A DNA stretch of 63,266 nt, the filler included. It is 11 parts of 11 records of this genome, joined end to end, with 100 filler letters (N's around TTAATTAATTAA, not from the genome) between each part and the next. Parts side by side here need not be neighbours in the genome. Positions count along the whole stretch, not along the records: positions 41,322 to 45,382 come from SRR15195285_255; 10 more parts are not named here. The stretch is one strand, 5' to 3'. Positions within the stretch are counted from its first letter, which is position 1. Every line of letters begins with the position of its first letter. Under the pieces are notes generated by a model. It was not told the origin of the DNA. It did not search any database and saw only the letters and a list, made by a program, of their open reading frames with translations. The translations under genes were made by a program, and so were the position numbers. Of this stretch, positions 9,007 to 57,543 are shown one piece after another.

Positions 9007-12000
9007 TCAGTCGGTCGACAGAAGCAGTCCCCCTCCTAGACGGACGGGAGAGTGCTCAAGCCCAATATCATCAAGTTGTGGGCTCGATGAGCCACTTCTA
9101 GCAGAACTCGGTCTCCTCGCCAGCCGTGAGCTTAGCTTGGACAATGCAGATTGTTTTGAACCGGTGGAATGCGCGTGTTCCAGCTCAGCGAAGGTGGTAT
9201 CGTAGACACCGACGCGCTTGATGCAGGCTGAGACTGCGTCATGGATGCGGCGTGTGCAATCATTCAAGTCACTCGCGCCTGGCAATGATGACTGCCCATG
9301 ACCGTGTGCCGGGATGTGTGATGCGGTAGCAGTTTGCAGCTTAATGCCTTGAAACTTCAGCAGGGCTGTCACAACACCTTGCACTGCCGGTGCAGGTTGC
9401 CCAGTTGCCTGTTGCAGCAGCTCTTGTAGGCCGTCAGTCGAGCTGTCACCTGTGTGTTCGTGCAAATGTGTAACGACCTGTTGCATGGTTTTCGCCGATG
9501 GTGTAGTCGCCAGCGCTCCGACGCCACCAAAACTCTGCGACTCTGTGAAGAAATCTTCTTCGCCGATCAGGATCGGTAGGACCGCCTTGATGCGCCCTCG
9601 TTGATGCAGCTCAAGCGCTGCAGTCCACTCGAGCAATACATTGTCTATCCAGTCGTCTGAATCCGTGAGCCGCACCATCGGTGCAACAGATCCCACGGAC
9701 ACCAATGGAACAAACACCATGGACTTCGATAGCCCCAGCATAAAGCCAGAATCCCAGCGCTGGCCGTCCTCCAACTTCGTTTGATCCAGGTAAACACGTA
9801 CCTTCTGCCCTGTGTCAACAAGGGTCATGTTAGATAGCTCGTCAAACAGCCGTCGTGCAAGCTCGCGGTCACTTGCTACGCGATAGCTGATAAACACGTG
9901 CGTCGACTTGTTCACTAGATTATCAAGAGTGTGAAAGTAGGCCGATAAAATCTTGAGATCATCGGCACTGGTGAGGCCGAGCTGCAATAGATGAATTGCA
10001 CGCTGTCTGGCTGCCGTGGAGCCCCCGTGCCCGTCCTCGGCGGCTACATCCTGCGTGGATGCCAGATGCTGTGACAGCAGAGCATTGGCCAGCATGGCAT
10101 GCTTTTTCCAAACACTCCAGATGAATACAGTGGGGACGCAAATCACGAAGCTCAGGACCAACACGAAGTCGTAAATGCTGGCCGTCGATGCTGTCGCTGC
10201 CGAAGATGATGACTGATACTCCAGACACTTCAGGGCCAAGGCAATTGTGACAGTCAAAACCAGATGCGCTTCAACGGAAGCCTTCAGCAAGTTGTCCTCG
10301 AAATGTTTGTATGGCGTCAGATGAATCTGAAGGGAGAAGCAGACGAACGAAATACACACTGCAACGAATAGCTGGCCAACGCTGCCTCGCCCAACTACAA
10401 CCAACATTCCTACCATCGCCAGCTTGCGCACCTGCAAGTTCCACACATCAGCAATGTTGTGAGCACCTCTTACGAACCTAGCTCTCCAGTATACACGGTG
10501 TCGCTGGTACCTTCTGATTGCATATCTAGGATGGAGAGAGCTTGTGTAGAGTGCTGAACTTTGCTGCAAGGCTTACCATATCCACACCTTCCCAGTAAAA
10601 GAATCGTGGGTTGAACGCATTGACGAGGAAGCTATACTCGCGACCGGTTGACACGTCGCGAATTGCATCAGACGCCACGGAGTCCGAGATCTTCAGCTCA
10701 TCCGCAACTCGGCGAGCAACGAAGCGATCACTTTCGCTGTTGTCCTCGTACTCTGCTATTCTCGACAACATCAGGACAACCGTTGTTACGGGCACACCCA
10801 GGCTGAAGAACACCACCACTATGCCAGCTACCAGCTGAAATACACCGTGAACTGCACTGTCACAAGAAATGTCATAATCCGCGACTAAAACATGAAGGTG
10901 GGAGTCAAGCACTCTACAATTGAACATGGAGAAGGCACGATTGCAGATCCCAGGATATATCAGGAACACAACCACGAACAAATCGCTTTTCAAGTTCGCC
11001 TTTGAATCTGACTGCTCCTGATCATCCCGGCGAGACTGGTACAGATATCGAAGTAGAACAACCGCAACCATCGCGACAGGAATCAGGAACACTCTGATGA
11101 CCCATATCCTGTAAAAACTTGCGTCCAGAATGCAGTCTAGCTGCAAAATTGACTGCAGATCAACTGCTAGTGGACTTAGCATCGAAAACACCTGCAGAAT
11201 GCCTGGCGGGAAGTCAAAGTGGAGCACTGGACCTATTTGCGTCACGACTTGCCCATATCCGACGAGGATGCGAATCGGTTGATAAAGAGCTCGAAACCAC
11301 AGTCCTATGCGGTATCTCCATGTCGGCGCAGCCCTCAGACCAGGAGTAAGCTCGGATGTTAGATCTCCCGACAGTGGGTTGTCGATTGATTGTCCTGCTC
11401 GGGCCGCCATAGCTTTGTTTTCGTTTCGGCGCTCGCGCCATATATACAAGCCAGGGCAAAGTACCAGTACCACGACAGCAGCCACCATAACGACAATAAA
11501 GTGTGAGCGACCCGCATCTGAGCACAACTGACATTCATCACCAACCTTACCAAAGCCACGCTCGCAAACTGCGCATAAAATACCACGGTGTCCTGGTTGG
11601 CACAAGTGACCATCGGCATGGACGCACGCTGGCTGTATCGGACACCGGAAAATGTGAGATGGGCTGCTGTCAGGGTCAGTAAACGCCCAGCCGTTACGAA
11701 CGCGGACCTCATCTGTGCAGCTGGCAACGCAGTCTAGTCCATCGCACGGGACGCACACTGAATCTGCAGCAATGGTGCCATGCGTCAGGTCTTGCTCCAC
11801 ACACTGCAGCCTGTTTCCACCGAACTCAGTAGCATTATACGTTCCTACCGGACACACGCATTGTGTTCGTGCCTCGTTCGCAACTTGGCCAGCAGGACAC
11901 GATTTACAGTTGGTACCGCTTGGGCTGGTTGCGAATTCGCTACACCTAGAGCATAGATAGGCGCCTGTGACAGAGTTTGGTGACTCTCCAGGCGGACAAG

Positions 12001-13807
12001 GCAAGCACGCTCTACCGACAGCCGAATAGGTACCGTATGCACACTGTTCACAACGAACACGATCGATAGTTGGTTGCTGCCCTCGGCCACATGAGTCGCA
12101 GCGCAATCTTCCATCCTCATCCTGGCGCTCAACAAACCCTTCTGCACAAACGCAAGCAGACCCATGCTCGTTCGGCCGTGCACGAACGTCTGAACACGCG
12201 ATTGGTGCCATAGAAATCGCAAGCAGAGGATAACTTTCACTGGCCGTGACGGCGCCCGTGTTGATGTTTGTGATGGCTCTCATTGGGACTATCGGGGCGG
12301 CATTTGCAGCTAGTGTAAACTCGAACAGGCCTTTTGTGGTCAGCCATGGTCCTGGGACAGCACAAGTGTAAGTCCCATCCTTTTCGTCATCACATTCGAA
12401 AGACGCTTCAGAGACGTGAGCAAACGTAGAGCTCTCCAGCTGAACAACAATCCTCTGGCCACCCCGGCTGATTGCATCGCCACTTGCGGTCCGCGTGATG
12501 ATTTTAAAAGAACACGCATCACCAACAGCGCACTGAACCGGGGGGACTGGAGTGATTAGAGTTTTGCTCAAGTCTGCTACTTCTAGAGATGTTGACAGCT
12601 GTAGAGTCCGCAGATCTGCAAAACCGTTTAGAATAGAACCCAGCTCCGCAGTACCCGCCGGGTCAAGTGGCAGCTGTAGTTGGTTGTGTTCGAGTCGTAG
12701 GCTCCGCAGCTGATGTAAGTTTTTGAGCTCGGTGGGGAGCTCACCAGCGATGAAGTTTTCAGAGATGTCAACTTCGGTCAATGCTCGCAGCATCCCGATC
12801 TCTGGTGCGATAGTGCCTCGCAATCCCAAACCACGCATATTCAGTGCAACGACACGCGCAGTGGAGCAACTGCGAGTGCTGTCTGCACAGCATTGCGTTG
12901 ATAGCAACTTTGCTGAGCTCTCAAAGCAATGTGCATTCTGGGGCGTGTAAGTCACATTAAGCCAAGATCCGTGTGTAGGTATGTGTATAGCAACGTCAGA
13001 CGGCGTCCAAGGATGTGTTGCAATGCTATCAATTTCAAGCGTGAATCCTGCAGCAGTGACACTCACATCCGTAACGAAACTGATGTAAACATTTGGTCCA
13101 GTGGATTCCACCGTGTCAGGAAGATCTGATAAATCACCTGACAGTTGAGCAAGCTCCGGGGATCCACTATTGGATCCGTCGAAAATGGTTACAAAGTCAT
13201 AGCCCTGCTCGGTCGCAAAATCTTTAAGCTGTATCAAAAAGGTGCCTTCGCCACGGAGATGGACTCCACAATGGAGATCGTTTTCGTACGGACCTGCGCC
13301 ACTAGTGACAACACCTTCTCGAACGTCAAACACGGAGCCATCTGACTGACATACAGATATTGCAGCTAATCCAGTATGCACACCAGCTGCACTGACTGCT
13401 GATGTACCATGGTTTCGAGTCGTTGAAACGTTGAACGTCGTTTCGTGATAGTGCCCAGCTACACTTGACCGAATCTGGAACGACGTCGTTGCAGCTGTCC
13501 CCTCTACTGCTGGTGAGGCTTCGAACAGCCTCGATTGTGGTATCTCCATAGGACGATCATCGAAGTTGTTGCTCACCCCAGTCCACACTTCCGTTGCGTT
13601 GCTGTCGACTCGAAGTGAAAAATAATCGAATTCGATCGAGCCATTGGATCTGATCGTGGCTTGCACGTCTTCACGAGGCAGCGTTTGTGCCAACGGTGTA
13701 CTGGACGGCTCCGTGCGGTCACGCACCATTTCCCAGTTTGCCGCGAAACCAAAAAGAGGCCCCCCGTGCCAAGCAGCGTGACAATCAGTACGCCAACGCA
13801 CTAGCAT
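9007..13807 (-). CDS. Multi-pass membrane receptor: CUB, LRR, filamin/Ig-like and Cys-rich ectodomain, multi-TM bundle and cytosolic TIR domain; probably 5'-truncated; 2 exons visible
   Basis: ORFs 10526..13807 and 9007..10569 join via intron 10576..10432 (GTAAGC...TTGCAG), giving 'FFYWEGVDM|VRKL'. CUB 'YENDLHC...FATEQGYDFVTIFDG...FVTDVSVTAAGF', plant-type LRR 'GLRGTIAPEIG', CxxCxxG repeats, TM region with 'QILGYGQV'-like and 'LVADYDISC' motifs, TIR 'HVFISYR...VYLD...VFVPLVS...VLLEW'. Confidence 0.85.
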
Positions 13808-14088
13808 GTCACNNNNNNNNNNNNNNNNNNNNNNNNNNNNNNNNNNNNNNNNNNNNTTAATTAATTAANNNNNNNNNNNNNNNNNNNNNNNNNNNNNNNN
13901 NNNNNNNNNNNNAGCATCATCGATCAAGCGCCGGATTGTCCATTATCACTTCTTTTTCCTCACCGGGGTTGACCCTCGCGAGCGTGCCGGCACGCGTTCG
14001 CACTGCTGGCTGCGCAGCGCGCTCGTGCTGCTGCTGCTGCCGTGCTGCGGCGGCCGCGCCGCCGCCGAAGCCGCCGCCGCCGAAGCTG

Positions 14089-41149: not shown

Positions 41150-41494
41150 CTGACATGTCAAGGTGGTACGATTCAGAACAGCGCTACTAGAATTTGCTCG
41201 TGTGTGTGTGTGTGTGTGTGTNNNNNNNNNNNNNNNNNNNNNNNNNNNNNNNNNNNNNNNNNNNNTTAATTAATTAANNNNNNNNNNNNNNNNNNNNNNN
41301 NNNNNNNNNNNNNNNNNNNNNAGACAATTGATATATTCGATTGAATGTCTTAGGGATCCCTACTGCATGACTGAATCTTTTTGCAGTGAATCGAGGATAC
41401 TCGGTAGATCAGTTAGGTCTACACATTGGCGGCGGGCCGGCGGCGGTGGAGCCGACAACTGACCAAGGACTGTTCAATTTGAAATTTAGTATTT

Positions 41495-41546
41495 TGATAT
41501 AGGACATAAGGCCTTATGCCCTATAATTATCCTATGCCCTATATCA
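41495..41546. repeat. Nested palindrome/inverted repeat, possible transposon terminus
   Basis: 28-bp palindrome TATAGGACATAAGG|CCTTATGCCCTATA (41498-41525, 1 mismatch). TGATATAGGACATA (41495) is also inverted to TATGCCCTATATCA (41533-41546). Confidence 0.7.
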
Positions 41547-42619
41547 GTGGCGTACGTCTCGAGAACTACCCGGACCACACATGCATCGGCCCTCATCACC
41601 ATGAATAGGTCTAAAGATCCGGCGATGATAAGCCTAAGGCATGTGTCGCTAACACGACGACGCTACCAAAAGCTAAGGGAACGTATGGAGCGGCTCGCAC
41701 AACGCGAGCGACCACACCAGCAGCAACGTTTTGAGTGGTATGTGTGTGGGTGTGGGTGTGGGTGTGGGGACGTAATACCTCAAAATAATGCATGAATCAT
41801 TCGAGCCATTTCGGAATTCAAATTGTTTGCTTATAAAGCACAGCAAATTTCGCGAATGTGAATTGGAACTATGATCACGTCTTCCTCCTGTTACAGGGCC
41901 ACGAGGTGTCGCTTGCTCTGATCGATCAACTCGGAAGACCACGTGGCGCAAGGGGCAAGGCTGATTTGCAACCGCACGCTACAGCATCTGATTCACCACC
42001 GTAGAGAAACACTATCACATCATTGCGATATCGAACATGGCAAAGTAGTCGTAAAATTGCGTTAGTGAATGATGCTAGTGAATGACACGTTTTCCCATCG
42101 TCCACGACGCTTGAACTCTCATCGCTGGGAACTGGCCACGAATCAGCAAGGTTCCGGCAGCTGTCGTGGGCATAGCGTCGGGCGTAGCGTACATTCTGCC
42201 GTGCCTCCGGTGGGTGCGCAGGAGCATGTGGTACTGGAGCCGAGCGTAATGATGTCTCTGTTCTTTCTTACTGGTAGCTTTGCCCTGTCTGCCCCATCAC
42301 CACTGGCTGTACAGTGGAATTTGCACTCAAGATCGACAACATCGTCTGGACGCCACATTCAGGCACGCTTTCTACGTCACGTGGTCAATCTTATACTAGT
42401 ACAATCATGCTCCGTCCGCCTTCCGTGGTCTTCACTAGCTGGACGTCCGGAGCATAAATTTGGCATAGAATATCAAATCTGAGGCCCGCGGGACGGACGC
42501 CATGTAATCAAACGAGTCGAACGCTGAATCTGCGGGTAGCATCGGGCTCAGCTGCGCCAACACATGCACCACGAGCAGCGAAACGTTGTTGCTAGTACAC
42601 AACCTCCGGTCCCGTTGTG

Positions 42620-45262
42620 CTAGATCGGCATGACTGCGAGATCACTCTCGTCGTCCGACTTGAGTGCAGCGTTGCTGACACTAATGTTGCTATACGTGAC
42701 TGTCGAGTCCGTCGGGCACTCTCCGACGCACCGCGTTCCGTCCAGCCAGCTCATGAGTACCCAGCTCTTGCCCCACAGCTGGAAGGTCAGTACCATGCCC
42801 TGATTCAGTGCTGCACTCATCTTGGCGAGGTATGATCGAGTACCAGTAGCATTGAACGTGAACTTCGATCCGTCCTGCTCGACTGTGTTCTGAATCTCAA
42901 GCAAAACGTCTCCCGTTGTATCTACCACGAACGTCTGTGTGTGTGTGAACGGCCGCCGAGTGTCGATGGTACACGTTGCTGCAGGGCAAAGCGCGTCGCG
43001 TGGCGAGAATCCGGTGGGTGGGAAAGGGCCGGCACCATCGCACGAGCGAATATAGCCACCTGCGGCGTCTGAGCACGAGTGCGGCGTGACCTTCATCACA
43101 TGCTGATTCCCCTCGAGGGAATCCATCTCCCAGCAATCCACGCCCCACACCTTGTTGCTATCACAATAGTAATTGCCCTTCAATGACGGCGCTGGCCGAC
43201 CGTGGATGTCGTAGCCCGGCATGGCCACCCAGTACAAAGCTGCGTTGCAAGAGCAAGGTACGTGACTCAGATCAACCGTGTAGCGCAATGTCTTCCCCAG
43301 CAGACTGAAGTGAACATAGCTGTTTGAGTTCATCTCGCCATCGCGTGACACCCAGATCCGTGTGCCCTGTGGCGTAGAGTTGTTCGAGTAAGTGCCATGC
43401 GCCAGTGTGAGCGTGCGTCGATCCACAGAAATCTGCACAGTGCCTGCTGACTCAGCGAGGGCGACGATATGGTGTGATGTATCGATCCCGTTGACTGCGA
43501 CGATGAAAGTGCCCTGGTCGACGCTGGATGCAGCCGTGTTTGTGTCGTCATCTGTCTTGACCGTTTGCTGCGGTGTCTTCTGCGTCACGCTCCCATGCCA
43601 CGCGCTGACGTTGACGGTCACGCTAACGTGTTCGAACTCCCGCGTAAAGACCCCAAGACTCGCGTTGACGATTGTCATCGGACCCAGCGGCGCCCCCAGC
43701 GGCTCGTCATCTGATCACCACAGCATGTGCACGCAGCATCAAGCGTAGCTACGAGCGAATTTGGCAGAGGTGAGGTGGCGGCGGAGCCAGACGGGGACAG
43801 GAATTTGGGAGGCTTACACGCTTTGAACCACGGGAAGCTTGACTCCACTCCCATCCAGCCTGTGCCCATCGCGACGTACGAGTACTGCTCTGCTCCCACC
43901 AGGAACGCTGCTCGCACTATTCACACGCACATCAGCAGCGACTGAGTATTGCAACGGCAAACTTTTAAGCCACGGCACAGGTGCGTCATTGCTTCACTGC
44001 ACTCACAGAACTCAAAATTGGGATCCATCGCGTTCGCCACCTGCGTGTGAACCATCGTTGGGATGCCGGCTCTGGCGTAGTTTGCTGCAGTGAAAATATC
44101 ATCTGTGAACCACACATAGCAGCGCACAGAGTGTCGGATTCAGGTCGCAAAGCGCGGAACCAATGAGACCAAGCAGTCAGTTAAGACACAAGCAGCAGCT
44201 GTTGGTCGTCGTCGTCCAACTCATCCTTCTGTTTCGGCGGCGGCGGCGGCGGCAGCCTCACTCACCGATGCAACATCGCTCGCGGGACTTGCAGGCCGAG
44301 GCGAACTTGTCCTTAGCCGGGCAAAAGAATTCATTGAAGTACCATGCCTTGGTCTCCGCCAGCACCTGCGTCTGCGCTTTATGAAACGTCGGGTCGGGCC
44401 AGCGCTCTAGTGATTTGATCGACATGATCGCGTATTTCCCCTTGCTCGCGAGAAACCGCGTGATGTTCTGCATTGCGTTCACCCAGCAGGTCTTCGTCCT
44501 TGCCTTGCGGGCCGCCGAAATCTTGCAGCCCATGAAGTCGCTGCCGTCAAGCTCTTTCGGCATCACCCAACGGTCAACTTCGTCGAAGAAAACGCCGCCG
44601 AGCTGCGCGGATGGGTCAACGAAGGACGCCAGGATTGTGTCCTGATAGTAGCGGACCATGTCAGGCTTGCAGAGGTCGTAGATGGGGCCGCGGCCGCGGT
44701 CGGTGTCGGAGTAGCAAACCTTACCATCGTCGCCCGTGAACCACAGCGACTCGTGCTTCGAGGAGTTGAAGTCGTCCCACCACCAGCTGTAGTAGCCCGT
44801 GCAACAGCCGTAGAAGCCGGTGTAGGCGCCGACGAACGTGGATGGGTCAATCGCGTGCACCTTGGCCGCGTCGCTGGCAGTGCAGTTCTCGGTATTGGCG
44901 TAGCCCGGTTTGTTGTCCTTGCACCTGGCCCAGCCCTCGAACCCACTGCCCGTGCAGTTGCTCCAGGTGCACGCGGCGCCGGCCTTCGTGCACGCACCTG
45001 GGTACTGCTGGCCCTGCGTCCAGGTCACAGGGTACTTGGCCATCAGCTTGGCTGCGCCTGGGCTGAAGTCGGAGCTGCCCTGCCCCGAAGCCCACACGGG
45101 TAGTGACTTCCAGCTCCACGGCCACCACGGCTTCAGGCCGTCGCCACCGTCCGCACCGTCCGCCGGTAGCAGTTCGACGACGGGGCTGCTGCCTGTGCCC
45201 CCTGCCTGCATCGACGCGATGAGCAGCAACCGGCCGTGGAGTAGCAGCAGGCCAGGCTGCAT
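42620..45262 (-). CDS. Secreted two-enzyme glycoside hydrolase polyprotein: GH168/GHL15-like (putative fucanase) + GH7 (endoglucanase-type); 4 exons
   Basis: Signal peptide present. Introns 44265..44103, 44006..43917 and 43817..43711 keep frame. Module 1 reads 'WSWKSLP', 'GVFFDE', 'NEFF', 'AAFLVGAEQYSY..GTGW', 'YDEPLGAPLGP', 'FTREFEHVSV'. Module 2 has GH7 motifs 'TVDLSHVPCSCNAALY', 'YCDS', catalytic 'EMDSLEGN', 'TPHSC', 'IDTRRPF', 'GMVLTFQLW', 'MSWLD', 'VTYSNI'. Confidence 0.85.
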
Positions 45263-45713
45263 CCAGCCCGCACCCGTGTGGAGATGGGAGAGAGTGTGTG
45301 TGTCTGGTTACACTGGCATGTTACGGGTTGTATCATTATCATGTTCGAATTACCGCCCGTTCTGAGATCCGGGGTTTGGGCCNNNNNNNNNNNNNNNNNN
45401 NNNNNNNNNNNNNNNNNNNNNNNNNNTTAATTAATTAANNNNNNNNNNNNNNNNNNNNNNNNNNNNNNNNNNNNNNNNNNNNCAACGGTGGGACGATACT
45501 ACTAGTACGTAGTGGCCGCCTAGGAATTCCTCGGACGGACAGAGAGACGGACAGACAGAGAGACAGCGAGGGTGGCATCAACCGCTCCATGTGAGAGTGA
45601 TCAACTGGTGCAGAGACGGGCTCACCTGAGGCGCTCGCTGCGGCGAGTGGTGTGGGGGGCCCGCAGAGTGAGAAGGGAGGTGGGAGGGAGGAGGGGGCTG
45701 TGGCCGGTAGGAG

Positions 45714-48700
45714 ATGGAGCGGACTAAGGAGATGTTGGCGAAGAGCTTCGGTGAGCGCCTCTATCGCTCGTCGATCGCTGCTAGTAGCGCTTGTATCGCT
45801 CCTGTACAGCTCCGCTGCAGCAGCTCATCTATAGCTACTGTGCAGCTGATATACAAATCCTATATAGGTCCTCTGCCAGTCCTGTTTCGTCCCTCTATAG
45901 CTCATCTAGAGCTCCTATGCGCGATCCTCTATAGCTCCTCCATAGCTCGTATGGCTGCGGTCGAGCTGTCGATAGCATCTCTGTCATGGCGGCTGGTGGC
46001 TGACGGCGCTATCTTCCGCAGGCTTGCTCCCAGCCGGCTCGGTGGCGCTGACAGCAGCAGGGACTATGGTCTGGTGTGCTGGTGGCGCTATCTGCGTACA
46101 GGCTTGCCTGGGGCCAGCGGCCACAGCCGTGATTAACTCAGGCGTGCTCGGTTTCGGCGGAGGCAAACATCGAGATATGGACCCAGCCTTGTCGCGGCCG
46201 TCTGAACGGCGACGTGGGCGTCGCAAAAGAAAGGCGTGGTGGTTGACAGCGACAGAAAGTGAACTGCGTAATGACTCAGATCGGCATCGCGCACGGTTTG
46301 GGGTCGACCGCGTCGGTCTGAACTCCCTGGTTTGCATTTTGCCAGATGTGGCCACAGTTGGTGTAGCCACGGCCGTTGCATGTGGTGTTGGCAGTCGTGC
46401 CGCTGGCGCTGCAGCCGTTGTGGCAGTAGTCTGCGTCGCTGGCCTGCGCACCAGCATCGTCGTGCAAGGCTTGGAAATGGGAGAGTCCAACGGCCTGGTT
46501 GCAGCATTTGCGCCAGACTTGCCTGTCGAGGCAACATCGGTTCGTGTAGGCCGGGTCGAGCTCAGACTGTCGTGGCGTTTGCAGTTCGGGCTGCACGTGA
46601 AGGATGTGTCGGTCGAGCTCCGGCCGTATGACCTCGGGTCGAAGGCACTTCATTATGCTCGACTGCGTCGTCGGATCGAGCGACGAGCAGTGGATGCTCA
46701 CAAGGCCAGGCGCCGACTTGATGATTTGGAAGAAGAGCAGCGCTTTATCGCACAGCGGGGCAACACGTGGTGGCTAGGGCAGTCGCCTCAGTCGGGGATC
46801 TACAAAGTAGTCACCAGCTGGTGGCATCCACGAGGCGCTCGCGTTCGCAGAGTTGCTAGCGGAGAGTCAGTCGTTCTTGGATACCTTGGTGTATTTGACC
46901 ACAGCGTTGGTCAAATGCTCCGCCTGGGTGGCGTCGCGGTGGCTGTAGCTGCAATTGCTGGCTCTTGCATGTGCTCTTTGCGTGGAGGTGACGCGAAAGG
47001 TTGCCGAGAAGCCGCTCGGCAATCTGCGAAGGCCGTCAGCGCCACCGGATTGATAGCAGCGTTTTTCGCCGACCGGATTGTTGCAGCTGTTTTGGATCGT
47101 GTGTATATCGAGGTCGACCGTGTTGATTTTAGCTTCACAGATGGAGAGCACATAGCTTGTGTGACGTGCGACGAAGTTCGATGGGGACGGCTTGTGGACC
47201 CAACAACACTAACCGGGCGTACGTTTTGGCAGCGGTGGATCTGGAGCACCTACGGGCCTCTGCCATCTTTACATAGCCTCAGAACCAGCTCAGTAGCATT
47301 CTCAGTTGCCGCGCAGAATATACCGGCAGACGCATGCTTGACGGTGGCACCGTCAATAGCAGAGGTGAGCGTTGTAGCGGCGCACGCATCGGCGCAGGCA
47401 AGTATTGAAATTGGGTTTCCGGCAATCAACGTGACCTCCAGTGGACGCCACACAATGGCCGCACGGAGGTTGCGCCAGCTGAGGTCTGAGTTGTTGCGTG
47501 GCAGCAAGGTGATGCAATTTGGCCTTGAAAGACTCTGGTCACCACAAGAGACTGCGTTGCGCCGATGGCAGTACGCCATTTGTTCTGTTCTGATTGATTG
47601 CCAGCGTCGTGCGGAAAAAGGCACCATTAGTACGGAGCTGAAAACTCGCGCCTTGAAGTATCCTCAGCGTAGGGCTGCACGGCTATGGAGCTATGCATTC
47701 CGCTGCGTGAGAATGGAGTTGCTGCGAGCGCAGTACGGGCGCAGCAAGCTTTTGCAGACTACTGTTTCGGAACCCGTGGCACGAGGCCCGGACGTCAGTA
47801 GGGATTCCGAACGGATCGGCGAGCTGGAAGACCTTGACCTCGACGATCTTCACGAACAGGCTTTGGCCGCGGGGGCAGAGCCCTCTCGCCTCAGACTTGC
47901 TGAGGACAGCCCCAGCCCGCGTGACGCGCTCATCTCCCTGTTGCTGGGCGCAGAGCAGGCGTATCCCATATTGCGGTCTGACAGACGTTGGTGTATTCAG
48001 ATTGGCACAGCTGAAGCAAGATTTGTGGACACTGGTGACGAAGCCGAGGCGACCACTGTCACACTCTCGGCAAAGTCGCTCCGGAGTGTGCAAACTCGCC
48101 GCGAACCCTTCGGGTCTGCGCTTCCGTTAATGGCAGTAGATGCGACCGTTGGAAAGCTGAGTTGTAGTTTCAATTCGTTTCGTGTGCTGCAAACCAACGC
48201 GCACGTCCTGACGGCCCGGTCTGCCAACTGTTTAGAGATTACAATGAACTCCTCGCACGACCTGCGAGCTAGGATGGGCGCGCTCAAGGTGTCACTAACG
48301 CCAGACACTTTGCACACCGCTCTGTCGATCTACAGCGAGTTTGACATGGCTGATGATGAGTATGTTCTCACACTAGTACGAGAAAATGCATTCCGAACGA
48401 ACAATGTTTCTTACTTGTCGGAACCCGTTGTGGACGAGGATCATATTGGAACATTTCGTGAAACCCGGTGGTTACGACATCGACACCGACCGCAGGTGGA
48501 CATCAAGATTGATTTACCAATCATCAATATCGGCAGCGATGATACAAAGCGAATCCTCGAACTGGACCTCGGCACAGTGAATGCTGGCAACACATCGGCC
48601 ACTCTACGGGACCTGTTGACCAGCGCCGCGCAACTGGACGACACCAGATACAACACAGTAGGCTGTAGGTGGGAAGGGGCAAAGGCGACTTTCGCAAGCA

Positions 48701-51700
48701 AGACCTCCGGTGGCCGCCAGCAAGTGTTTGAGGGCTTTGGTGGCACAGCTTCTGTTCAAATTTGCGCTCTCTCGGCCGACTACATGTGGGCACAGAAGTG
48801 CCCTCAACTACAGCTGTCTATCAAGCTTGAACCACTTGCGGCCAAAGCAACACGATCGACCGCTGCCGGGCTTATGGATCTGACGCTTGCCGTGCATCGA
48901 GCACTGTTGGACGGTGAATCCCTCATGGTTGCGCGGGGCGATGTGGTTGAAGTAACTCCGCCGAGCTTGGGGCGATTCGCACACACGGCACACTTGGTCC
49001 GATCACCTGAGTCAGCACGGTGGTGCTTGCGGCACGTGGCTATTGAGCCTCGCGAATGGACCTTCTCAATCTTGGACGAGTGCTCTGCTCGTCCCATGTT
49101 GACGTTTGCTTTCGATGTTGACGATCTTCGCCTACAGCACTTTAATACGCAGCACCACAACTTGCATCTCCAGCTCAAGTTGCATGCATACGCATACAAC
49201 ACGTCCGTTGTTGCTTGGGAACCTATCATTGAGCCGTGGACAGCACGACTGACTTCGCTGCAGTCAAATGATGAAACACACGTCAGATTTAACGGGGACA
49301 AGCTCAATATCAACTTCTGTCCGTCGCTGTTTCGCAGTCTCACGCTTCGGCAGTCAAAGCAAAGCTCAAGCTCAGGCGATGTGCAAACTTGGCTGGTGAA
49401 TTACACAGGCACTGCCATCAGGTACAGAAACGTATGCTCATTTGACTCCCACGGCCGAGCCCTGGCGCGCGACGTCCAAAATCATCAGCAACATTGCCAG
49501 CTGGAGGATGGGGCGAAGGGATTCCTGGACATGGTTGGCCCCTCTGGACCTGGAGTTTCGTTTGATCAGGGCTTGGCAGTTGAGTTTCCTGATCTATTGT
49601 GGCATGACGCAGAGTTCACTGACGTGTCTCGCGAAGGAGTGCAGTCCAAGCTTATTGGCGGGAGTATGGCTGGTATCACTGTTGTCTGCGTCACCGAAGT
49701 TCAGGATGACGGAACACGAGTCATCACACTATGTTCGGGTGTCAAGGTTGATAATCAGACAAATCGAGACATCGAGTTTGGCTTGCGTAGGTGTGATGTG
49801 GCAGGCACCGTGGATCAGCACGTGCGGTCTGCGATGGTGGTGCCGAGCGAGAGCACTGGGTTCTTTCCTGCAGCACTGTGGGCTGCGAATCGGCACGACA
49901 ACTGCTCCTCACAGCTGGTGGTATTCCGGACGTGCGATGGAGGAGATATTTGGACTGATCCGTATGATGTACGGCAACCTATTGCGGCTACATCTGCGGA
50001 GCTAGTTGTTTGTAACGAAGGCACCGAACGCCAGTTCACTGCTTGCCTGTCTACAACACCGGGCTATGCTCCAGCTGGCAAGCTGAGCGTCCTGACGCTA
50101 TTCAACTGTTTGGATGTACAGAACGACTTTGCTTTCCCTCTTGAGCTGCATTTTTTTGAAGAGGAAGTTCCCAGCACCCAGCCGACAGTTCCGTGCGCTG
50201 CAGGCAATCCGACAGTGCGCCCCCAGCGTCGTGCACTGGTCGAGCCTGGGTCACGGGTTGACGTGCCAGAATGGGATCCGAAAAAGGATGCCTGGATGGC
50301 CGTGGCGAACTGCGAGGGCGCTATCTCTTCTCGAGTTTGTGTATATCGCGCACATGACTCAGACGATCAAAGCTTAGCGTCTGACGTGGTCCTGCGTGGT
50401 GGCCGATTTGCTTACGGCGGGATCCGTGCGGAAGATTCTAGTAAACTGAACACAGACAGCGGAATGGAACACGCTAGCTGTATGCCGCTTTCACTACACT
50501 ATGAAGCACAAGGAATCACGGCGGCAACAGCAGCAGATGCATCTCACCTGGTCAGACTATCGTGCTCTTACCTTGTAGTCAACAATACCCCGTTGCCATT
50601 GGTATTGCGTTCTCGGCACGCGAAGCACAGCGATCGAGATGTCGTTGTTGCTCTTCCAGGCTGCGATCTGACTGCTGACGATCGGCCCACCCCTATCCCT
50701 TTCACCAGCCACGGGAACGTTGAAATCGGAAAACGTGTCGATGTGCTCGGCACTGAGGAAGTTGATTCAGACCACCCGGACGCCATGATCCTGTCTCTTG
50801 TCTGCGGCAAAACACTGCGAGCCGGACTGCTTGACAGGCTAACGATGGACGTCCCTGATCCGTATGTTAAGGTCACGTTTGCACCCAGACACGCTACAGA
50901 TAATAGTACTACAGACAAACCGCAATACGTCTTCGGGGACCCAGTTCACATCGGTCGCACAACAGCGATACAAAATAGTGCGGACCCGGTGTGGAACGAA
51001 CGATTCTTAGTCCGTGTACCTCCCGATGGGGGCATGATCGCATTGAAGGTTATGGATTTCGACCGCTGGTCGGGTGATGACTCAATTGGCGAGGTCAAGC
51101 TTGATGTAGAGCACGGAGCCACGATAGAGCAGACCACAGTTGACGTGCTTGGTCTAGGTGGAATGAGAAAGGGCCAACTTGAGATTGGGTTGCAGAAAGC
51201 GACCGGCTGCAGCGTGCCGCCCGTTGGGCTTGTTGTAAGCACATGGGGATCGCGAGTCGTCTCAACAGCCCAAGCAGGACCACAGATGCTGCCGGTGTCT
51301 TTAGGACTAGATGATCTCGGCGTCACAGTGGTGCCTTTGAATAGATCTTCTGGGGCGCCGCACGTAGTGTCCATTGTGCCTCGGTATCGTGTGGATAATA
51401 TGTCGCGCCACAATGTGATAGTGGCTGTCGGACAGTGCGATGGTCATCAGATACGCGTCTGTGCAGGTGAGTCTGAGCTTGTTGGACTCAGATCTGGAGT
51501 AGACCCCAGGTTGTTCTTCAACGCTGGACAGCTGGACGACGGCAGCTCGTCTGCGTGGTCCCGTGGCGTTGTGGCCACTGATGGCCAGTCTGATTTAGCT
51601 GTCGACTCGACCAGAATCATGTCCGGCGATGTCAAGCTTGACGTGCGATACGAAGTTCACGGCGGAACGGGTGTGTTCACTGTTCAGGAGGGAACGCCAG

Positions 51701-54700
51701 CACTTGTTGTTGAAAATTTGGCGTTCGACCAGGTGTGGATTGCAAAAGACTTGGCTGCCACAAGTCGACGCCACAAGCTCAAAAGACGTACGACGCAGAG
51801 CACTAGGCTATCGAGTTCGCGAGGAGAGACGACCAAATGGATCAGATTGAGTAAGACTGAGCGATTTTGCTTCCATGAATGGGATTGGCACACAGAAACA
51901 CATATTCGGCTCAAAACATGCAACGGTCAAAGCCACACTGTTGATGTCAGCACCCTTACTGATTCCAGCTCTGATGAATGGTCTTGGACCACTGCAACGG
52001 GGGAAACATTATGGCCACAGGTCCTCGTGGTCAACAACGTCAGGCTGCTACGGTTGGGCAAGACAGCTGTGCGACCGCGCGGTCCGGGCATCGAGTCTAT
52101 GTTTAGGCTGAATGCATCGCTGCCAGGAGTGGGCCTGTCAGTCATCGGTGACCCAAAACACGGCCGTGGAGCAGAGCTTCTGTACGCAAGTTTCAGCAGC
52201 GTGGCATTACATCACCTGGAGAAGGATGGTAGGCTCACCACCGACTTGTCAGTCGGAAAGTTGCAGGTCGATGAGTACATCAGTGGCGCAGACCGACCTA
52301 GTCAGCGGGACATGATTGCTGGGCCTCTTGTGTCGGAGAGACAATCAAGCCTGTCTTCAATGCTACAGATTCGCACAGTACGTTTATATCAGGAAGGGCT
52401 GGCTCTGTACGAGTCATTTGTGGTGAAGACGCGCCCAATGTTCTTCAACTTGAAATGGTCGACTTTGTCGCGTCTGCTGCGTGAGCAAAGCGTGCAGCAT
52501 CTTTGCCGTGCGCTAGTTTACGCAGAATGGAGCGTCGATAGGCGACCACAGACTAGTACTAAGTCCCTTCTTCACTCTGTAGAGGTCGATCCTGTGAGTG
52601 TTGCGGTCAATTTTGACATGAAAGGATGTGCTAACGGAAGCAATTTGTTGAAGGTTTTAGGGCTGCACAAATATGCACAGCAGCTAGAAGCTGGCGGTGA
52701 GCAAGACACAGGAACGATTCAGAGTCAGCGGCTAAACCTGAGCGACATCTTCTACACGCCACAGCAGATACTGTCGGATGTAGCTGCCGACGTCCTTGGG
52801 CAGGTCGCCACATGTCTGACGTCATCGTCATCGGCTTCAGTTGCAAGATCAGAGTCTGCAGTAGCCATGCACCAGAAATCAGGCAGCACACGTTCCATGC
52901 GCACTGCAGGTGCGGACAATTTCGCACCAGAGGATGCACTTGTCCTTGCGACCGAACCACCGGATATGAAGATCAATGAAATGGTGAACAAAGTGACCGA
53001 CACAACGCCAGGGTGGCGGCATCGCGCTCAGTCCACAAGAAACATTCGCTCAGACAGCCAGCTATTTGCTGAACGCTGGCCGCGCGTTTTTGGCCTGAAC
53101 GGCACTGTCAAGGATTACAGCGTCAATAATGTAGTTCTGTGCACGCTTCTTCAAAAGAGTGGATGTTCCGAAGCAAGCGAACTCGACGAGGACTGTCTGA
53201 GCATCGTTGCTGTCGCAGACCCTGGAAATCCAAAGAGTCGATCGTTGATGCTTTTGACAAAACACACGATTTTTTTCGCGAAGCCGGTCGCCCACGGCAA
53301 CCGATTACACAACCATCGCAGTCGTGTACGTGATATCGGAACCTTGGAAATGGTGTTTGGTGATGAGATCACTGTACGAGACATCCAAGACCTGACGGTA
53401 GAGATTTCTACAGGCACTCTGCTTTTACGGCTGTCAGGTTCAAAACGTAGTTTCACCACTTACGTCGGCGAGAGGGATGAACCGCTCGAGACTGAGTTCA
53501 AACTCGCAGAATTCTTCAACCACCTGGTTGGGTTGCTGGAGAATATCAGGGCAGTTGCCGCTCAGTACAGACGTTTTGGGGGGGCGTTGTTGCCACACAG
53601 ACTGACCACTCATCATTCCGACACCACCAGGGGTCGCAAGAATGGCAGAGGGAACAGTGCACCTACCACAGTTACTTTGACGATACTTGATGCTAGCTGG
53701 GAAGATCTTTGCACTCACGGGCGTCGATACAGCGCGTGCAAAACCTGCAGACGCTTGAGACTGAAACCAAATAGGCCCAGTAGCGACGATTGGTTTTGCG
53801 AGCTGCAGGTGGGCAAACGTAGACCGCGTAAACTCTCGGTCGGCAAGCAAGTCACGTTTGACGTAGGTGGTGGTCCACAATGCGTGGTGGCGTTGAAGAA
53901 CGCAAGTACTGTCGGAGCCAAGTGCATAGGCACAACTGAACTTCGTGTCGACAGCTCTAGTGTCGAGTCCAGTCCAAAGGAACAATGGTGGAGCCTTTCG
54001 CCTCTCCCAGGCAGTAAGGAGACACCAGGCGCGAAAGTGAAGATGTGTATGTCATGCTCACCTCGCATTGACGACACTTTATTGGATGTGCCGAGAGACG
54101 CAACGCTGCTTTCCAATATGTTCGATACGTGCACGGTGTTGCGGATAGATATCAAATCCATTCGTCTGCCGACCAGCGCAGACGCTGCGCATGGCGAAAG
54201 GCTCACCTGTGCGCTGAAAATCGTGCGCGACGGCCTGACTGTGGCAGAAAAAGATGCATTTGTGATAGTCTCAGCTACAGAGCAGCGCTGTGAGGCTCAT
54301 GGCCTGGAACCAGTTCTTTTTGATCTCACGGAACTGAGTGCTGCTGGTCAGGAGTATGCGAAAATGTGTGTGCATGCGCAACTGCTGCTGTATGGTCGGT
54401 CTACAGTTGTGTGCGAAGAAAAATATCCGTTCCCTGGGGCCCAGATTGGATGGGCAAGAGAGGAGGACCCAACAACAATTGAGCAGGAGGTCAACTCGAA
54501 GGTTCGAGTGGCGCGGCGAGGAGACATCGACGTGTCAATGAAAGTGGACGCGATCCGGACTTCTTGGACCAATGTCGATTTGCCTTCGTATCCTCAGTTA
54601 GTTGACTACGAGATTACGCTCAGGACAGGCGAACACGGTGATGCAGGCACTGACGCAAGCATCTTCGTACAGTTGATTGGCGATCAAGGCCACTCACCTC

Positions 54701-57543
54701 GTATACCTCTTCAACTACGTGAGGAGGACCTGAGGACTGGGGGCATTGTCCCTGGTGGCACAAACATGTTCACAGTCGCAGCGCCGCAGGTCGGCAAACT
54801 ACAGCGGCTACGAATTGGCCACGACAACACCGGGAACCCAACGATAGGGCGATCGCAAGCGTGGTTCCTGGAATCAGCGGTGGTTGAACGTGCGGCATCG
54901 TCCATCGATTCAGGAAGTGACGACGAGCCCACGGCTGAAGACTATGCTGTGGATGGTGTCGTTTTCCCTTGCGGTCAGTGGTTTGGTCGACCCTTGCCAG
55001 TGCCCACATCAGGTATGACCCGTGCGGAAGCAAGGTTAAAGAACCCCGGCTTCTATGGCAATCCATTGGCATATACGGGCGATGTTGCCTTGAGTCGTGA
55101 GCTACTGGCGCCATACATGGGCCCAATCTGTCTACTTGAAACTTATCTTGTGACCGTGTCAACTGGCTGTATTGGAACAGACGGGCTGGTTTCGCTCACT
55201 CTGTTTGGGTCCGATGGAGACAGCGGTGCACATGAACTTCGACACCGCACCAAGGGTGGACAAGTAGACGCCGGACGACGAACATTTGAAGCAGGAGCCG
55301 TAGAAACCTTTGCGCTGGAGTCGTTTGGTCTCGGACAACTTAGGTATATCAAGCTGACACTTTCAGCAGTGGATCGCACGAAACCAGGTGTGCTGCCAGT
55401 CTTATTTACCGGCCCTAAGCAGGGAAAGGGCGTCCGGGATGCACACACGGTCGCGGTAGAAAAACAGTTAGCTACAGGCTGGATGTGTGAGCACGTGACA
55501 ATACGAAACCTGCGAACGATGCAATGCTGGGGTTTGCCCATTCACTGTCTGCTTGCAAGCAAGGAAAACGGCGCTGGGGTAATGGATGGGCTGTCTCGTA
55601 CGATCGGGCTCGGGCCAGCTCGGCAGCAAGCAGTTTACCGCGTGACAATATGCACAGGTGATGTGGTTGCAGCTGGTACGGAGGCAAACGTGTCACTGCG
55701 AATGGTAGGCCAGAAAGGCCAGTCAGATCTAGTGAAGTTGCAACGAACCTCTAGCTCTAACCGTCAGCCCACAAAGTCGCTGGACGATGCAGATCAGATG
55801 TTTCAACGCGGGGAAACGAACGAGTTTGAACTCGAGGTCGCTGACATTGGCGCTGTTTTCCAAGTTGAGCTTTCACACGATGGCCGGGGGATTGGCAGTG
55901 GCTGGTTTGTCGAAGAAGTGCTGGTGGAACGCCTGGGGGCTGTGGTTGAAGCTGCCAAGCAAGCTGCAGACGCGCCGACGTTTGGCCAGTCTGCTGCGAG
56001 CCGATCTGGAAGATCCAGAGGCCGACGTCGTACCCACAGCTATGATATTGCAACTTCTGGTAGCCGCAGCACAAATCTTCAGAGTTACGATCGGGGGAGC
56101 ATCAGCGACACCAGAGATGAAACTCTGCCTGACTCTCGAATAGGTAGCCTGACACATCCGTGTGCTCACCACAATCTAGAGAATGACCCACGCAGTAGTA
56201 GCTACGATGACAACCGCAGTTTCAACCCCGTGTCTTATCGAAGCCGACAGACTGCCAATTTCGCGCTTGAGCCGGTGCAGACACGGTTTGTCGCACATGC
56301 GTGGGTAGAAGACTCGCCTTTGGTTGTGGAGGTTGACTTGAATGACCCCACGATAACTGTGGGTGCTGGTCGGCACTCTGTGCATTGGCTAGTTACAGTC
56401 AAGACTGGCACGATGGAGTTTGCTGCAACCACATCAGCTGTGTCGCTTACACTGCATGGGACCAGCGGAGAGGGTGGCACCCATCATTTGGGCAAGACAT
56501 CATCTCTGTACATGCCACGGAAAGGTCCATTCGCTCGCGGTGCAGAGAGTGTATTTAGCATTCGCACAACAGACTTAGGCTCGCTCACTGAGGTCACGAT
56601 CTCGCACGACAACTCAGCTATCACAACGGAACGCGCGGCTTGGTATCTAGAGTGGGTCGAGGCGATTGACGAAGGCACGGGAGTGCACTACCACTTTCCG
56701 TGTGGACAGTGGCTCGGTGGCGGGCGAACGAGACTAGAGTCAGTGGAAGACTTCAATGCTCGTTGCGGCGGGGTGGCTAACGACGGTGCTCTCTTTCGTA
56801 CTCTGACGCCACTAGAACCGGGCTTAGAACGTTACGATCCTACTCGCAGAGTGATGGAGACGGCAGAAGATACTCTCGGTACACTGGTTTTTAAGCGTCT
56901 GAGGGTGCTTGACCCTGTTTCTGAAGGTGTGACCCGTCTTGCACTCTCGAGAAAGCGAACCTACATGATCATGAGCTGTGGTACTGCGAATTCGACTGCG
57001 CATTCCAGCATCTCAACTAGTGTACACGGCTCACACAAAACCCTTTCGAATGCCAGGGCGTCCGAATCCTGGGGAAACGATGAAACGCTCAGGCTTCGTG
57101 TGTCAAACACTGCCTTTGGAAAGGCCGAGCTTAAATTAGTGGCGATGGGCAAAGAGAAAACCTTTGGCATTGAAACTACATCGTTGGTCATGGAAGGGAG
57201 GGACAAGCCCGTTCCTATTGGAGAAGCCATCATTAAGCTGACAGATGTGTTCCCTGCAGCGTTCAGTGATCGTTCACGGTTCCACAGTGTCGGTGGAGTC
57301 CATCACGCAGTGTACGAGCTGCAGTCGCGGAACAGTTATGTTGAGAGTGTAGATGCACCTCTTCGTGTAGAAATACTGATGATGTTTCTGCCGAATCGGG
57401 CTCGCAGCTCCGCGGAGTGGTCACGAAAGAACGCACAGTCACAGCTGCGGAACAGTGTGCCGGAAGATTATGACTTAAATGGGGACCTTTGGGTTGACTC
57501 GGCTGAGGACATTGATTACATTGAAGACCAAGTGTCACATTAG
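45714..57543 (+). CDS. VPS13: VPS13-like bridge lipid-transfer protein with C2 domains and four C-terminal PLAT/LH2 domains; 2 exons
   Basis: Short exon 45714-45750, intron 45751-46021 (GTGAGC...CCGCAG), then an ~11.5-kb exon. Chorein-N-like 'LPVEATSVRVGRVELRLSW', 'WQYAICSVL', 'YNTSVVAWEPIIEPW', VAB-type repeats, 'LPGVGLSVI...ELLYAS...LQVD', 'RWPRVFG'; C2 'PDPYVKV...DPVWNE...DFDRWSGDDSIG'; four PLAT starts (YEITLRTG, YLVTVSTG, YRVTICTG, WLVTVKTG). Confidence 0.85.

Follow-up and report, generated by a model that had tools for sequence, protein, structure and literature searches.

The window analyzed here, a DNA stretch of 63,266 bases, is a pseudomolecule in which about 11 unlinked contigs are placed end to end, with joins of the form N44-TTAATTAATTAA-N44. 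Ten such spacer sites lie within window positions 5304-58285 (for example, at 45383-45482), and they contain stops in all six frames. Because the contigs are unlinked, gene neighborhood across the spacers is without meaning, and no synteny can be read from it. The subject of this study is a fusion gene on the minus strand (45262..42620), which consists of four exons separated by GT..AG introns of 163, 90, and 107 nucleotides and reads in frame into a protein of 760 amino acids. This protein joins a GH168/GHL15-like module to a small GH7 module, and a short peptide motif follows each of them. The features of the gene are listed below in the order of translation.

41322..45382, no strand assigned: contig carrying the GH168/GHL15-GH7 gene (4.06 kb)
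44266..45262, minus strand: exon 1, residues 1-332 plus 1 nucleotide; N-terminus and most of the GH168/GHL15-like module
44582..44584, minus strand: Asp227 in FFDEVD, aligned by eye with D172 of the GH168 fucanase; invariant column
44330..44332, minus strand: Glu311 in YFNEFFCP, aligned by eye with E243 of the GH168 fucanase
44007..44102, minus strand: exon 2, GH168/GHL15-like module
43818..43916, minus strand: exon 3, GH168/GHL15-like module
42620..43710, minus strand: exon 4, last part of the GH168/GHL15-like module (up to NVSAW, 43598), then linker, GH7, tail, and stop
43544..43561, minus strand: junction motif 1, VKTDDD (residues 448-453), GTC AAG ACA GAT GAC GAC
42665..43534, minus strand: small-type GH7 module, exon-4 residues 59-348, with limits from Pfam, the AlphaFold2 (AF2) fold, and Foldseek
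43112..43129, minus strand: GH7 catalytic motif EMDSLE (E-x-D-x-x-E), aligned with ELDIWE (8pof) and EMDILE (1eg1)
42647..42664, minus strand: junction motif 2, LKSDDE (residues 747-752), CTC AAG TCG GAC GAC GAG
42620..42646, minus strand: tail SDLAVMPI (eight residues) and stop (stop codon 42622-42620)

Exon 4 is one open frame of 364 codons that contains the transition from the GHL15 end to GH7, and the fusion is therefore independent of the splice model. Over model residues 275-444, all three splice junctions are spanned without gaps by a single uninterrupted open reading frame (ORF) of L002, a related metagenome contig, and a further contig, L001, also spans the second junction. In addition, a protein from another assembly (P0001) is 99% identical and has the same linker, motifs, and tail. 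A single spliced transcript is probably made from this gene, judging by these homologues. Eleven marine RNA runs match small shares of the stretch, and the four that were examined yielded 15 contig pieces (window 41600-45385) at 95-100% identity, unspliced and with no joints. Three of these pieces cross introns 1-3 (43720-43995, 43938-44099, and 44155-44302). RNA contigs that run through introns represent unspliced RNA or carried-over DNA, and the pieces speak neither for nor against splicing or expression. In one RNA contig, the GCC/GCG run of intron 1 contains an inserted CGG after position 44234.

The protein has a hydrophobic N-terminus (45262-45185); its sequence, MQPGLLLLHGRLLLIAS, is hydrophobic yet atypical as a putative signal peptide. 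Considering the hydrophobic N-termini of both the window protein and its relatives, a signal peptide is probably present. At the other end, a weak GTGATC donor may follow the GAGA that ends motif 2. No coding-looking ORF was observed in the 1.3 kb between the stop and the contig end. A third module downstream was considered and rejected: the ORFs of 41322-42620 are short, and most of them have a third-position GC content of 0.41-0.67, compared with 0.75 for the coding sequence.

The second module is a complete GH7 domain. The GH7 region of exon 4 passes the Pfam model PF00840 with 71.4 bits (cut-off 27, E 8e-20), and 40 PDB GH7 sequences were matched at E ≤ 1, the best being 8pof (E 2.5e-16). 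The AF2 model of the core (residues 59-348) is of medium confidence, with a predicted template modeling score of 0.70 and a mean predicted local distance difference test (pLDDT) value of 68. When this model was searched with Foldseek, ranks 1-48 were all GH7 chains (E 3.5e-17 to 3e-12), again with 8pof as the best. The GH7 catalytic motif, E-x-D-x-x-E, is well conserved, with D196 invariant and E194/E199 at least 90% conserved in the alignment columns. The stand-alone homologues P0002-P0005 and P0007 have 305-335 amino acids (P0006 is truncated N-terminally), which implies that the short form of GH7 is a complete module. Thus, the initial annotation of a complete GH7 module is borne out by the Pfam score, the fold, and the existence of complete short stand-alone homologues. 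Like 8pof, a small GH7 endoglucanase of the RsSymEG1 type, the window GH7 has about 290 residues and keeps E-x-D-x-x-E. This structure is its best match in both sequence and fold (template modeling scores 0.58/0.65), but the two are only about 24% identical; moreover, unlike the 8pof type, the window GH7 sits behind another enzyme and bears an LKSDDE tail. The stand-alone GH7 relatives P0002-P0007 have putative signal peptides of their own and no such tail.

The first module begins at LKPWWPWSW (45136). Exon 1 by itself gave no match in Pfam or PDB, and the last 27 residues of the module in the window protein, taken alone, match GHL15 (PF14885) weakly (E 0.016). Homologues at 33-42% identity pass the GHL15 cut-off (P0015 with 61.6 bits, P0014 with 35.4, and P0020 with 29.3), and the family profile aligns over the full length (positions 35-412) with GH168 endo-1,3-fucanase structures (9joc, E 1.9e-16; 9jof). 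Membership in GH168/GHL15 thus holds at the level of the family and not from the window sequence alone, and the label "GH168-like" given at the outset was appropriate. The catalytic residues named for WfGH168_II are D172 and E243 (PMC12534559), and the residue mapping in the list above follows this numbering. By a count made by eye, D172 and E243 of 9joc align with the Asp of FFDE and the Glu of FVE in the family. The window family and the GH168 fucanases/GHL15 have in common these catalytic Asp/Glu positions and a C-terminal ...W-K end. Unlike bacterial GH168, the window module is eukaryotic and intron-bearing and has a Cys-rich insertion. It is a putative fucanase-type triosephosphate isomerase (TIM) barrel. 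The GHL15-like family is rare, with 37 representatives at E ≤ 1e-3 among 1.84 billion proteins. Its eukaryotic members (the window protein and P0010-P0051) have a conserved PWWxWSW start and N-termini that resemble signal peptides. The Cys-rich insertion, GACTKAGAACTWSNCTGSG, occurs in the window copy and P0011 and is absent from P0013 and P0014.

The two motif copies of the window lie where the initial annotation had placed them, with exactly the residues it had given, including SDLAVMPI and then the stop. VKTDDD is found 14 residues past the GHL15 end and about nine residues ahead of the first GH7 strand, and LKSDDE comes directly after the last GH7 strand, followed by eight residues and the stop. 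Both copies fall in predicted disordered segments (pLDDT <50 in AF2), one on each side of the GH7 fold. K[ST]DD occurs twice when all six frames of the window are read, both times in exon 4, compared with the 0.59 per window predicted by a Markov null. The corresponding DNA pattern, AAGWCNGAYGAY, has two matches in the window, at the two motif sites (0.20 expected), and two of 100 shuffles reached this number. Evidence for the motif from the window only is moderate, and it is made robust by the relatives.

Motif counts cover the six frames of the window and the recovered relatives; the databases consist of ORF-level predictions from intron-bearing eukaryotic contigs, and a scan of metagenome contigs by narrow alignment contributed two loci. 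Across this set, the motif generalizes to K-[ST]-D-D-[DER]. The sites outside the window are as follows.

P0008/P0063: GHL15 end followed by GH31 (PF01055, E 5.5e-38), SKTDDE
L002: GHL15 followed by a weak BNR/sialidase-like module, LKTDDD
P0037/P0080: GH123_N-like module (E 2e-22) followed by GHL15, QKTDDD
P0014, site 1: N-terminal module with no family match followed by GHL15, LKSDDR
P0014, site 2: after GHL15, followed by 11 residues and the stop, WKSDDR
P0051: GHL15 followed by a Cys-rich stretch and a GH18-like module, WKSDDR

The motif stands between catalytic modules in all six fused proteins or loci, including that of the window. A total of seven distinct sites were obtained (window included), or eight if the second site of P0014 and that of P0051 are counted apart. 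The N-terminal module of P0014 gave no match in Pfam or PDB and no usable match in the ESM Atlas. The ending of P0014 recurs unchanged across four assemblies (P0014, P0067, P0069, and P0070, with the sequences of three compared), and P0051 is 86% identical to P0014 across the GHL15 module. Among 51 proteins (12,055 amino acids), K[ST]DD occurs eight times, compared with 0.2 on average and at most 3 in 2,000 shuffles, and 11 permuted control motifs occur 0-2 times each in the same proteins. This count of eight includes P0001, which duplicates the window protein, and a copy inside the GHL15 fold of P0018 (FMKSDDIGG), in which the next residue is not D, E, or R. When the 20 residues on each side of a site were shuffled locally, P was ≤0.002 at each site, and the expectations for eight sites add up to 0.0035.

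By contrast with the fused proteins, all 15 stand-alone homologues with a visible C-terminus lack the motif (GH7, P0002-P0007; GHL15, P0047-P0050, P0015, and L001; GH18-like, P0052-P0054). Even P0052, which is 81% identical to the fused GH18-like module of P0051, is without it. The motif is also absent at the junctions with accessory domains, namely Cys-rich/GH18-like in P0051 and GH31/trefoil in P0063. The claim that the motif follows each module therefore stands for the junctions of catalytic modules and fails for accessory-domain junctions and stand-alone enzymes, and the view of it as a dedicated delimiter outside both folds agrees with the distribution over fused and stand-alone proteins. 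The motif follows the GHL15 end (NVSAW) at a distance of 8, 14, 31, or 53 residues, and the linkers cannot be aligned with one another, yet all five motif positions are kept; such variation in length and sequence around a constant motif argues for selection on the peptide. A comparison by eye indicates that the putative signal peptides of the stand-alone forms end 5-20 residues ahead of the fold, which is the place taken by the motif in the fused forms. Taken together, K-[ST]-D-D-[DER] is a real, conserved, and junction-specific mark, located in an exposed linker and restricted to fusions of catalytic modules.

Several other observations were made in these proteins and in the window. In P0063, a trefoil (P-type) domain (PF00088, E 4.5e-9) occupies residues 706-738 in the GH31 module behind GHL15. 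In L002, a repeat of 40-106 nucleotides is present in at least five copies and in both orientations (930-984, 1838-1919, 2201-2313, 2514-2566, and 2748-2858). The copies lie between the coding segments of the gene for the GHL15-sialidase-like fusion, and the repeat resembles an introner-type element occupying the introns. Elsewhere in the window, an uninterrupted plus-strand frame of 3,855 codons (45976-57543) fills nearly a whole contig, and a minus-strand frame of 1,112 codons (10526-13864) encodes a CUB domain and DUF7630. Neither contains K[ST]DD. The scan of ten large frames pointed to just one more protein that is probably extracellular, the one with the CUB domain.

It had also been proposed that the motif could be a DNA-level junction through which enzyme cassettes are concatenated. 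Three DNA copies were compared, namely the two of the window and that of L002 (CTC AAG ACC GAT GAC GAC). They differ at up to all three positions of the Ser/Thr codon (ACA/ACC/TCG), at a synonymous Asp position (GAT/GAC), and in GTC/CTC. When both strands of the window, L001, and L002 were searched with a degenerate DNA pattern, no further copy, out of frame or non-coding, was found, and the stand-alone genes are without the sequence. These results argue against a cassette junction, and the three DNA copies weakly suggest that the constraint acts on the peptide.

Several explanations of the motif can be weighed against one another. That two similar pentapeptides arose by chance in acidic, Ser/Thr-rich linkers might be thought from the window protein itself, as an equally similar pair occurs somewhere in the protein in 200 of 200 shuffles, and from the K[ST]DD copy inside the GHL15 fold of P0018. 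Such a pair, however, arises in both of the zones behind the modules in just 0.5% of 20,000 shuffles, the local shuffles leave an expectation of 0.0035 against eight sites, and the motif recurs in independent assemblies and samples; chance is effectively ruled out by the relatives. A more substantial case is that of an evolutionary footprint with no present function, i.e., an ancestral GHL15 linker or a fusion scar (including the DNA-level junction above) that has not yet eroded. Six of the seven distinct sites adjoin GHL15, P0014 and P0051 diverge fully right after KSDDRS, as at a recombination point, and window copy 1 and the L002 copy have GAT-GAC-GAC in common. Nevertheless, the five positions are intact in proteins of 35-60% identity whose linkers of 8-53 residues have diverged past alignment, and the motif is found before as well as after GHL15 and also behind GH7; together with the comparison of the DNA copies, this makes a mere footprint improbable. 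We hold it even less probable that the motif, with a short tail where it is terminal, is a sorting or retention signal that targets these enzymes to the cell surface or a digestive vacuole, in the manner of plant C-terminal vacuolar propeptides. Two terminal copies do have short tails (ESDLAVMPI in the window, and RSMMAPERARGA in P0014 and three further assemblies), and the relatives look like secretory-pathway glycosidases with hydrophobic N-terminal stretches. On the other hand, most copies lie within the protein, where a signal that acts at the C-terminus would be hidden, the stand-alone enzymes of the same families do without the motif, the two tails have no clear common pattern, and no transmembrane or glycosylphosphatidylinositol (GPI)-like hydrophobic tail follows the motif. 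A GPI- or sortase-like C-terminal signal was rejected on account of the tails, which have 8 (SDLAVMPI) and 11 residues (SMMAPERARGA), and of the internal position of most copies, and cytosolic acidic-cluster or dileucine tails were rejected for their wrong topology.

The fused enzymes might also remain intact, with the pentapeptide serving as a hinge, being modified (for example, by phosphorylation or O-glycosylation), or binding a partner. This explanation accounts equally well for the conservation of the motif, its specificity for junctions, and its disordered surroundings; a Ser/Thr that never varies and has acidic residues after it is reminiscent of the sites of acidophilic kinases, and the terminal copies in the window and P0014 are easier to understand if no downstream module is needed. 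If the motif were a hinge or a modification site, stand-alone enzymes should have it as well, yet none of the 15 does, and KSDDR, with Arg at +3, does not fit the S/T-x-x-D/E rule of CK2-type sites. An uncleaved functional linker is thus somewhat unlikely, although clearly more probable than a footprint or a sorting signal.

We favor, with a probability of roughly 0.4, the explanation that the motif is a protease recognition site that separates the enzymes of one secretory precursor. The gene would encode a single secretory-pathway precursor with two independent glycosidases, a GH168/GHL15-like enzyme and a small one of the GH7 endoglucanase type. K-[ST]-D-D-[DER] would be a junction signal that is selectively maintained in the disordered linker, in uncultured marine protists, wherever catalytic modules fuse. 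It would be recognized by an endoprotease, acting late in secretion or in the digestive-vacuole pathway, that separates the modules after folding, so that the enzymes would be made as mixed polyproteins. The C-terminal copy may then serve to trim the eight-residue tail, or it may be the remnant of a lost third module. The restriction of the motif to fusions (six of six, compared with none of the 15 stand-alone proteins) fits a separating signal, and several functional units, GHL15-like and GH7, are indeed present in one frame with their junction within one exon. Since the partners appear to act on unrelated substrates, co-delivery followed by separation would fit better than synergy on one polymer.

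Several points weigh against this explanation. No evidence of cleavage and no protease candidate was obtained, and the motif matches none of the protease specificities compared. Kex2/furin-type processing was rejected, as the sites of the window, P0014, P0051, P0037/P0080, and L002 have a single Lys and no KR/RR is common to the sites; in P0008/P0063 (VRKSKTDDE), R-K lies two residues upstream. An acid-labile Asp-Pro bond was also rejected, as D-P occurs only in L002. Terminal copies followed by tails of 8-11 residues (in the window, and in P0014 in four assemblies) are awkward for a separating signal, and intact multi-catalytic carbohydrate-active enzymes (CAZymes) are common. With the RNA contigs unspliced and free of joints, the single transcript rests on homology. 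Six of the seven distinct sites flank GHL15, and only window copy 2, after GH7, lies away from it; this bias results from the use of GHL15 as the main query, and generality beyond GHL15 depends on window copy 2. In addition, some of the stand-alone ORFs may have been cut short by unrecognized introns.

Secretory polyproteins that are cut at short conserved motifs include the fungal repeat proteins processed by Kex2 at KR, the nematode polyprotein allergens, the light-harvesting polyproteins of Euglena and dinoflagellates, and the plant precursors processed by vacuolar processing enzyme. Similar to these, the fused glycosidases have one precursor led by a putative signal peptide, independently folding units, and a linker motif that recurs at junctions. 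Secretory polyproteins, however, mostly consist of one repeated unit or of small peptides, with dibasic, Asn/Asp, or other described sites, whereas the fused glycosidases are different full-size enzymes with a single Lys and without KR/RR, and their cleavage is a proposal. The other relevant group is the multi-catalytic modular CAZymes with flexible linkers, which are found in bacteria and anaerobic fungi. The window protein resembles them in having at least two glycoside hydrolase modules and disordered linkers. Modular CAZymes have low-complexity linkers rich in Pro/Thr/Ser with no fixed motif, and their partners usually act on one substrate; in contrast, the fused protist glycosidases keep a strict pentapeptide and would combine partners for unrelated glycans. 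No description of a K[ST]DD junction motif was found in the titles and abstracts covered by the literature search.

Uncultured marine protists may therefore make glycosidases (fucanase-like, cellulase-like, GH31, GH18-like, sialidase-like, and GH123-like) as mixed polyproteins in changing combinations, to be released by a new endoprotease that reads K-[ST]-D-D-[DER]; we advance this wider proposal more tentatively than that of the recognition site itself. If true, it would represent a new eukaryotic processing code, and the fusion of secreted enzymes would be nearly cost-free, which would explain their promiscuous shuffling. If the motif is cut, the CAZyme repertoires of uncultured marine grazers would have to be recounted, with one gene giving several enzymes, and a ready-made, self-separating linker would be at hand for multi-enzyme expression from one gene. 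An uncut motif would still be a rare, strictly conserved pentapeptide amid otherwise free-running linkers. In the titles and abstracts covered, the GH168 family is documented only in marine fucoidan-degrading bacteria. The motif marks a family of eukaryotic GH168-like enzymes, and fucoidan is a recalcitrant carbon pool.

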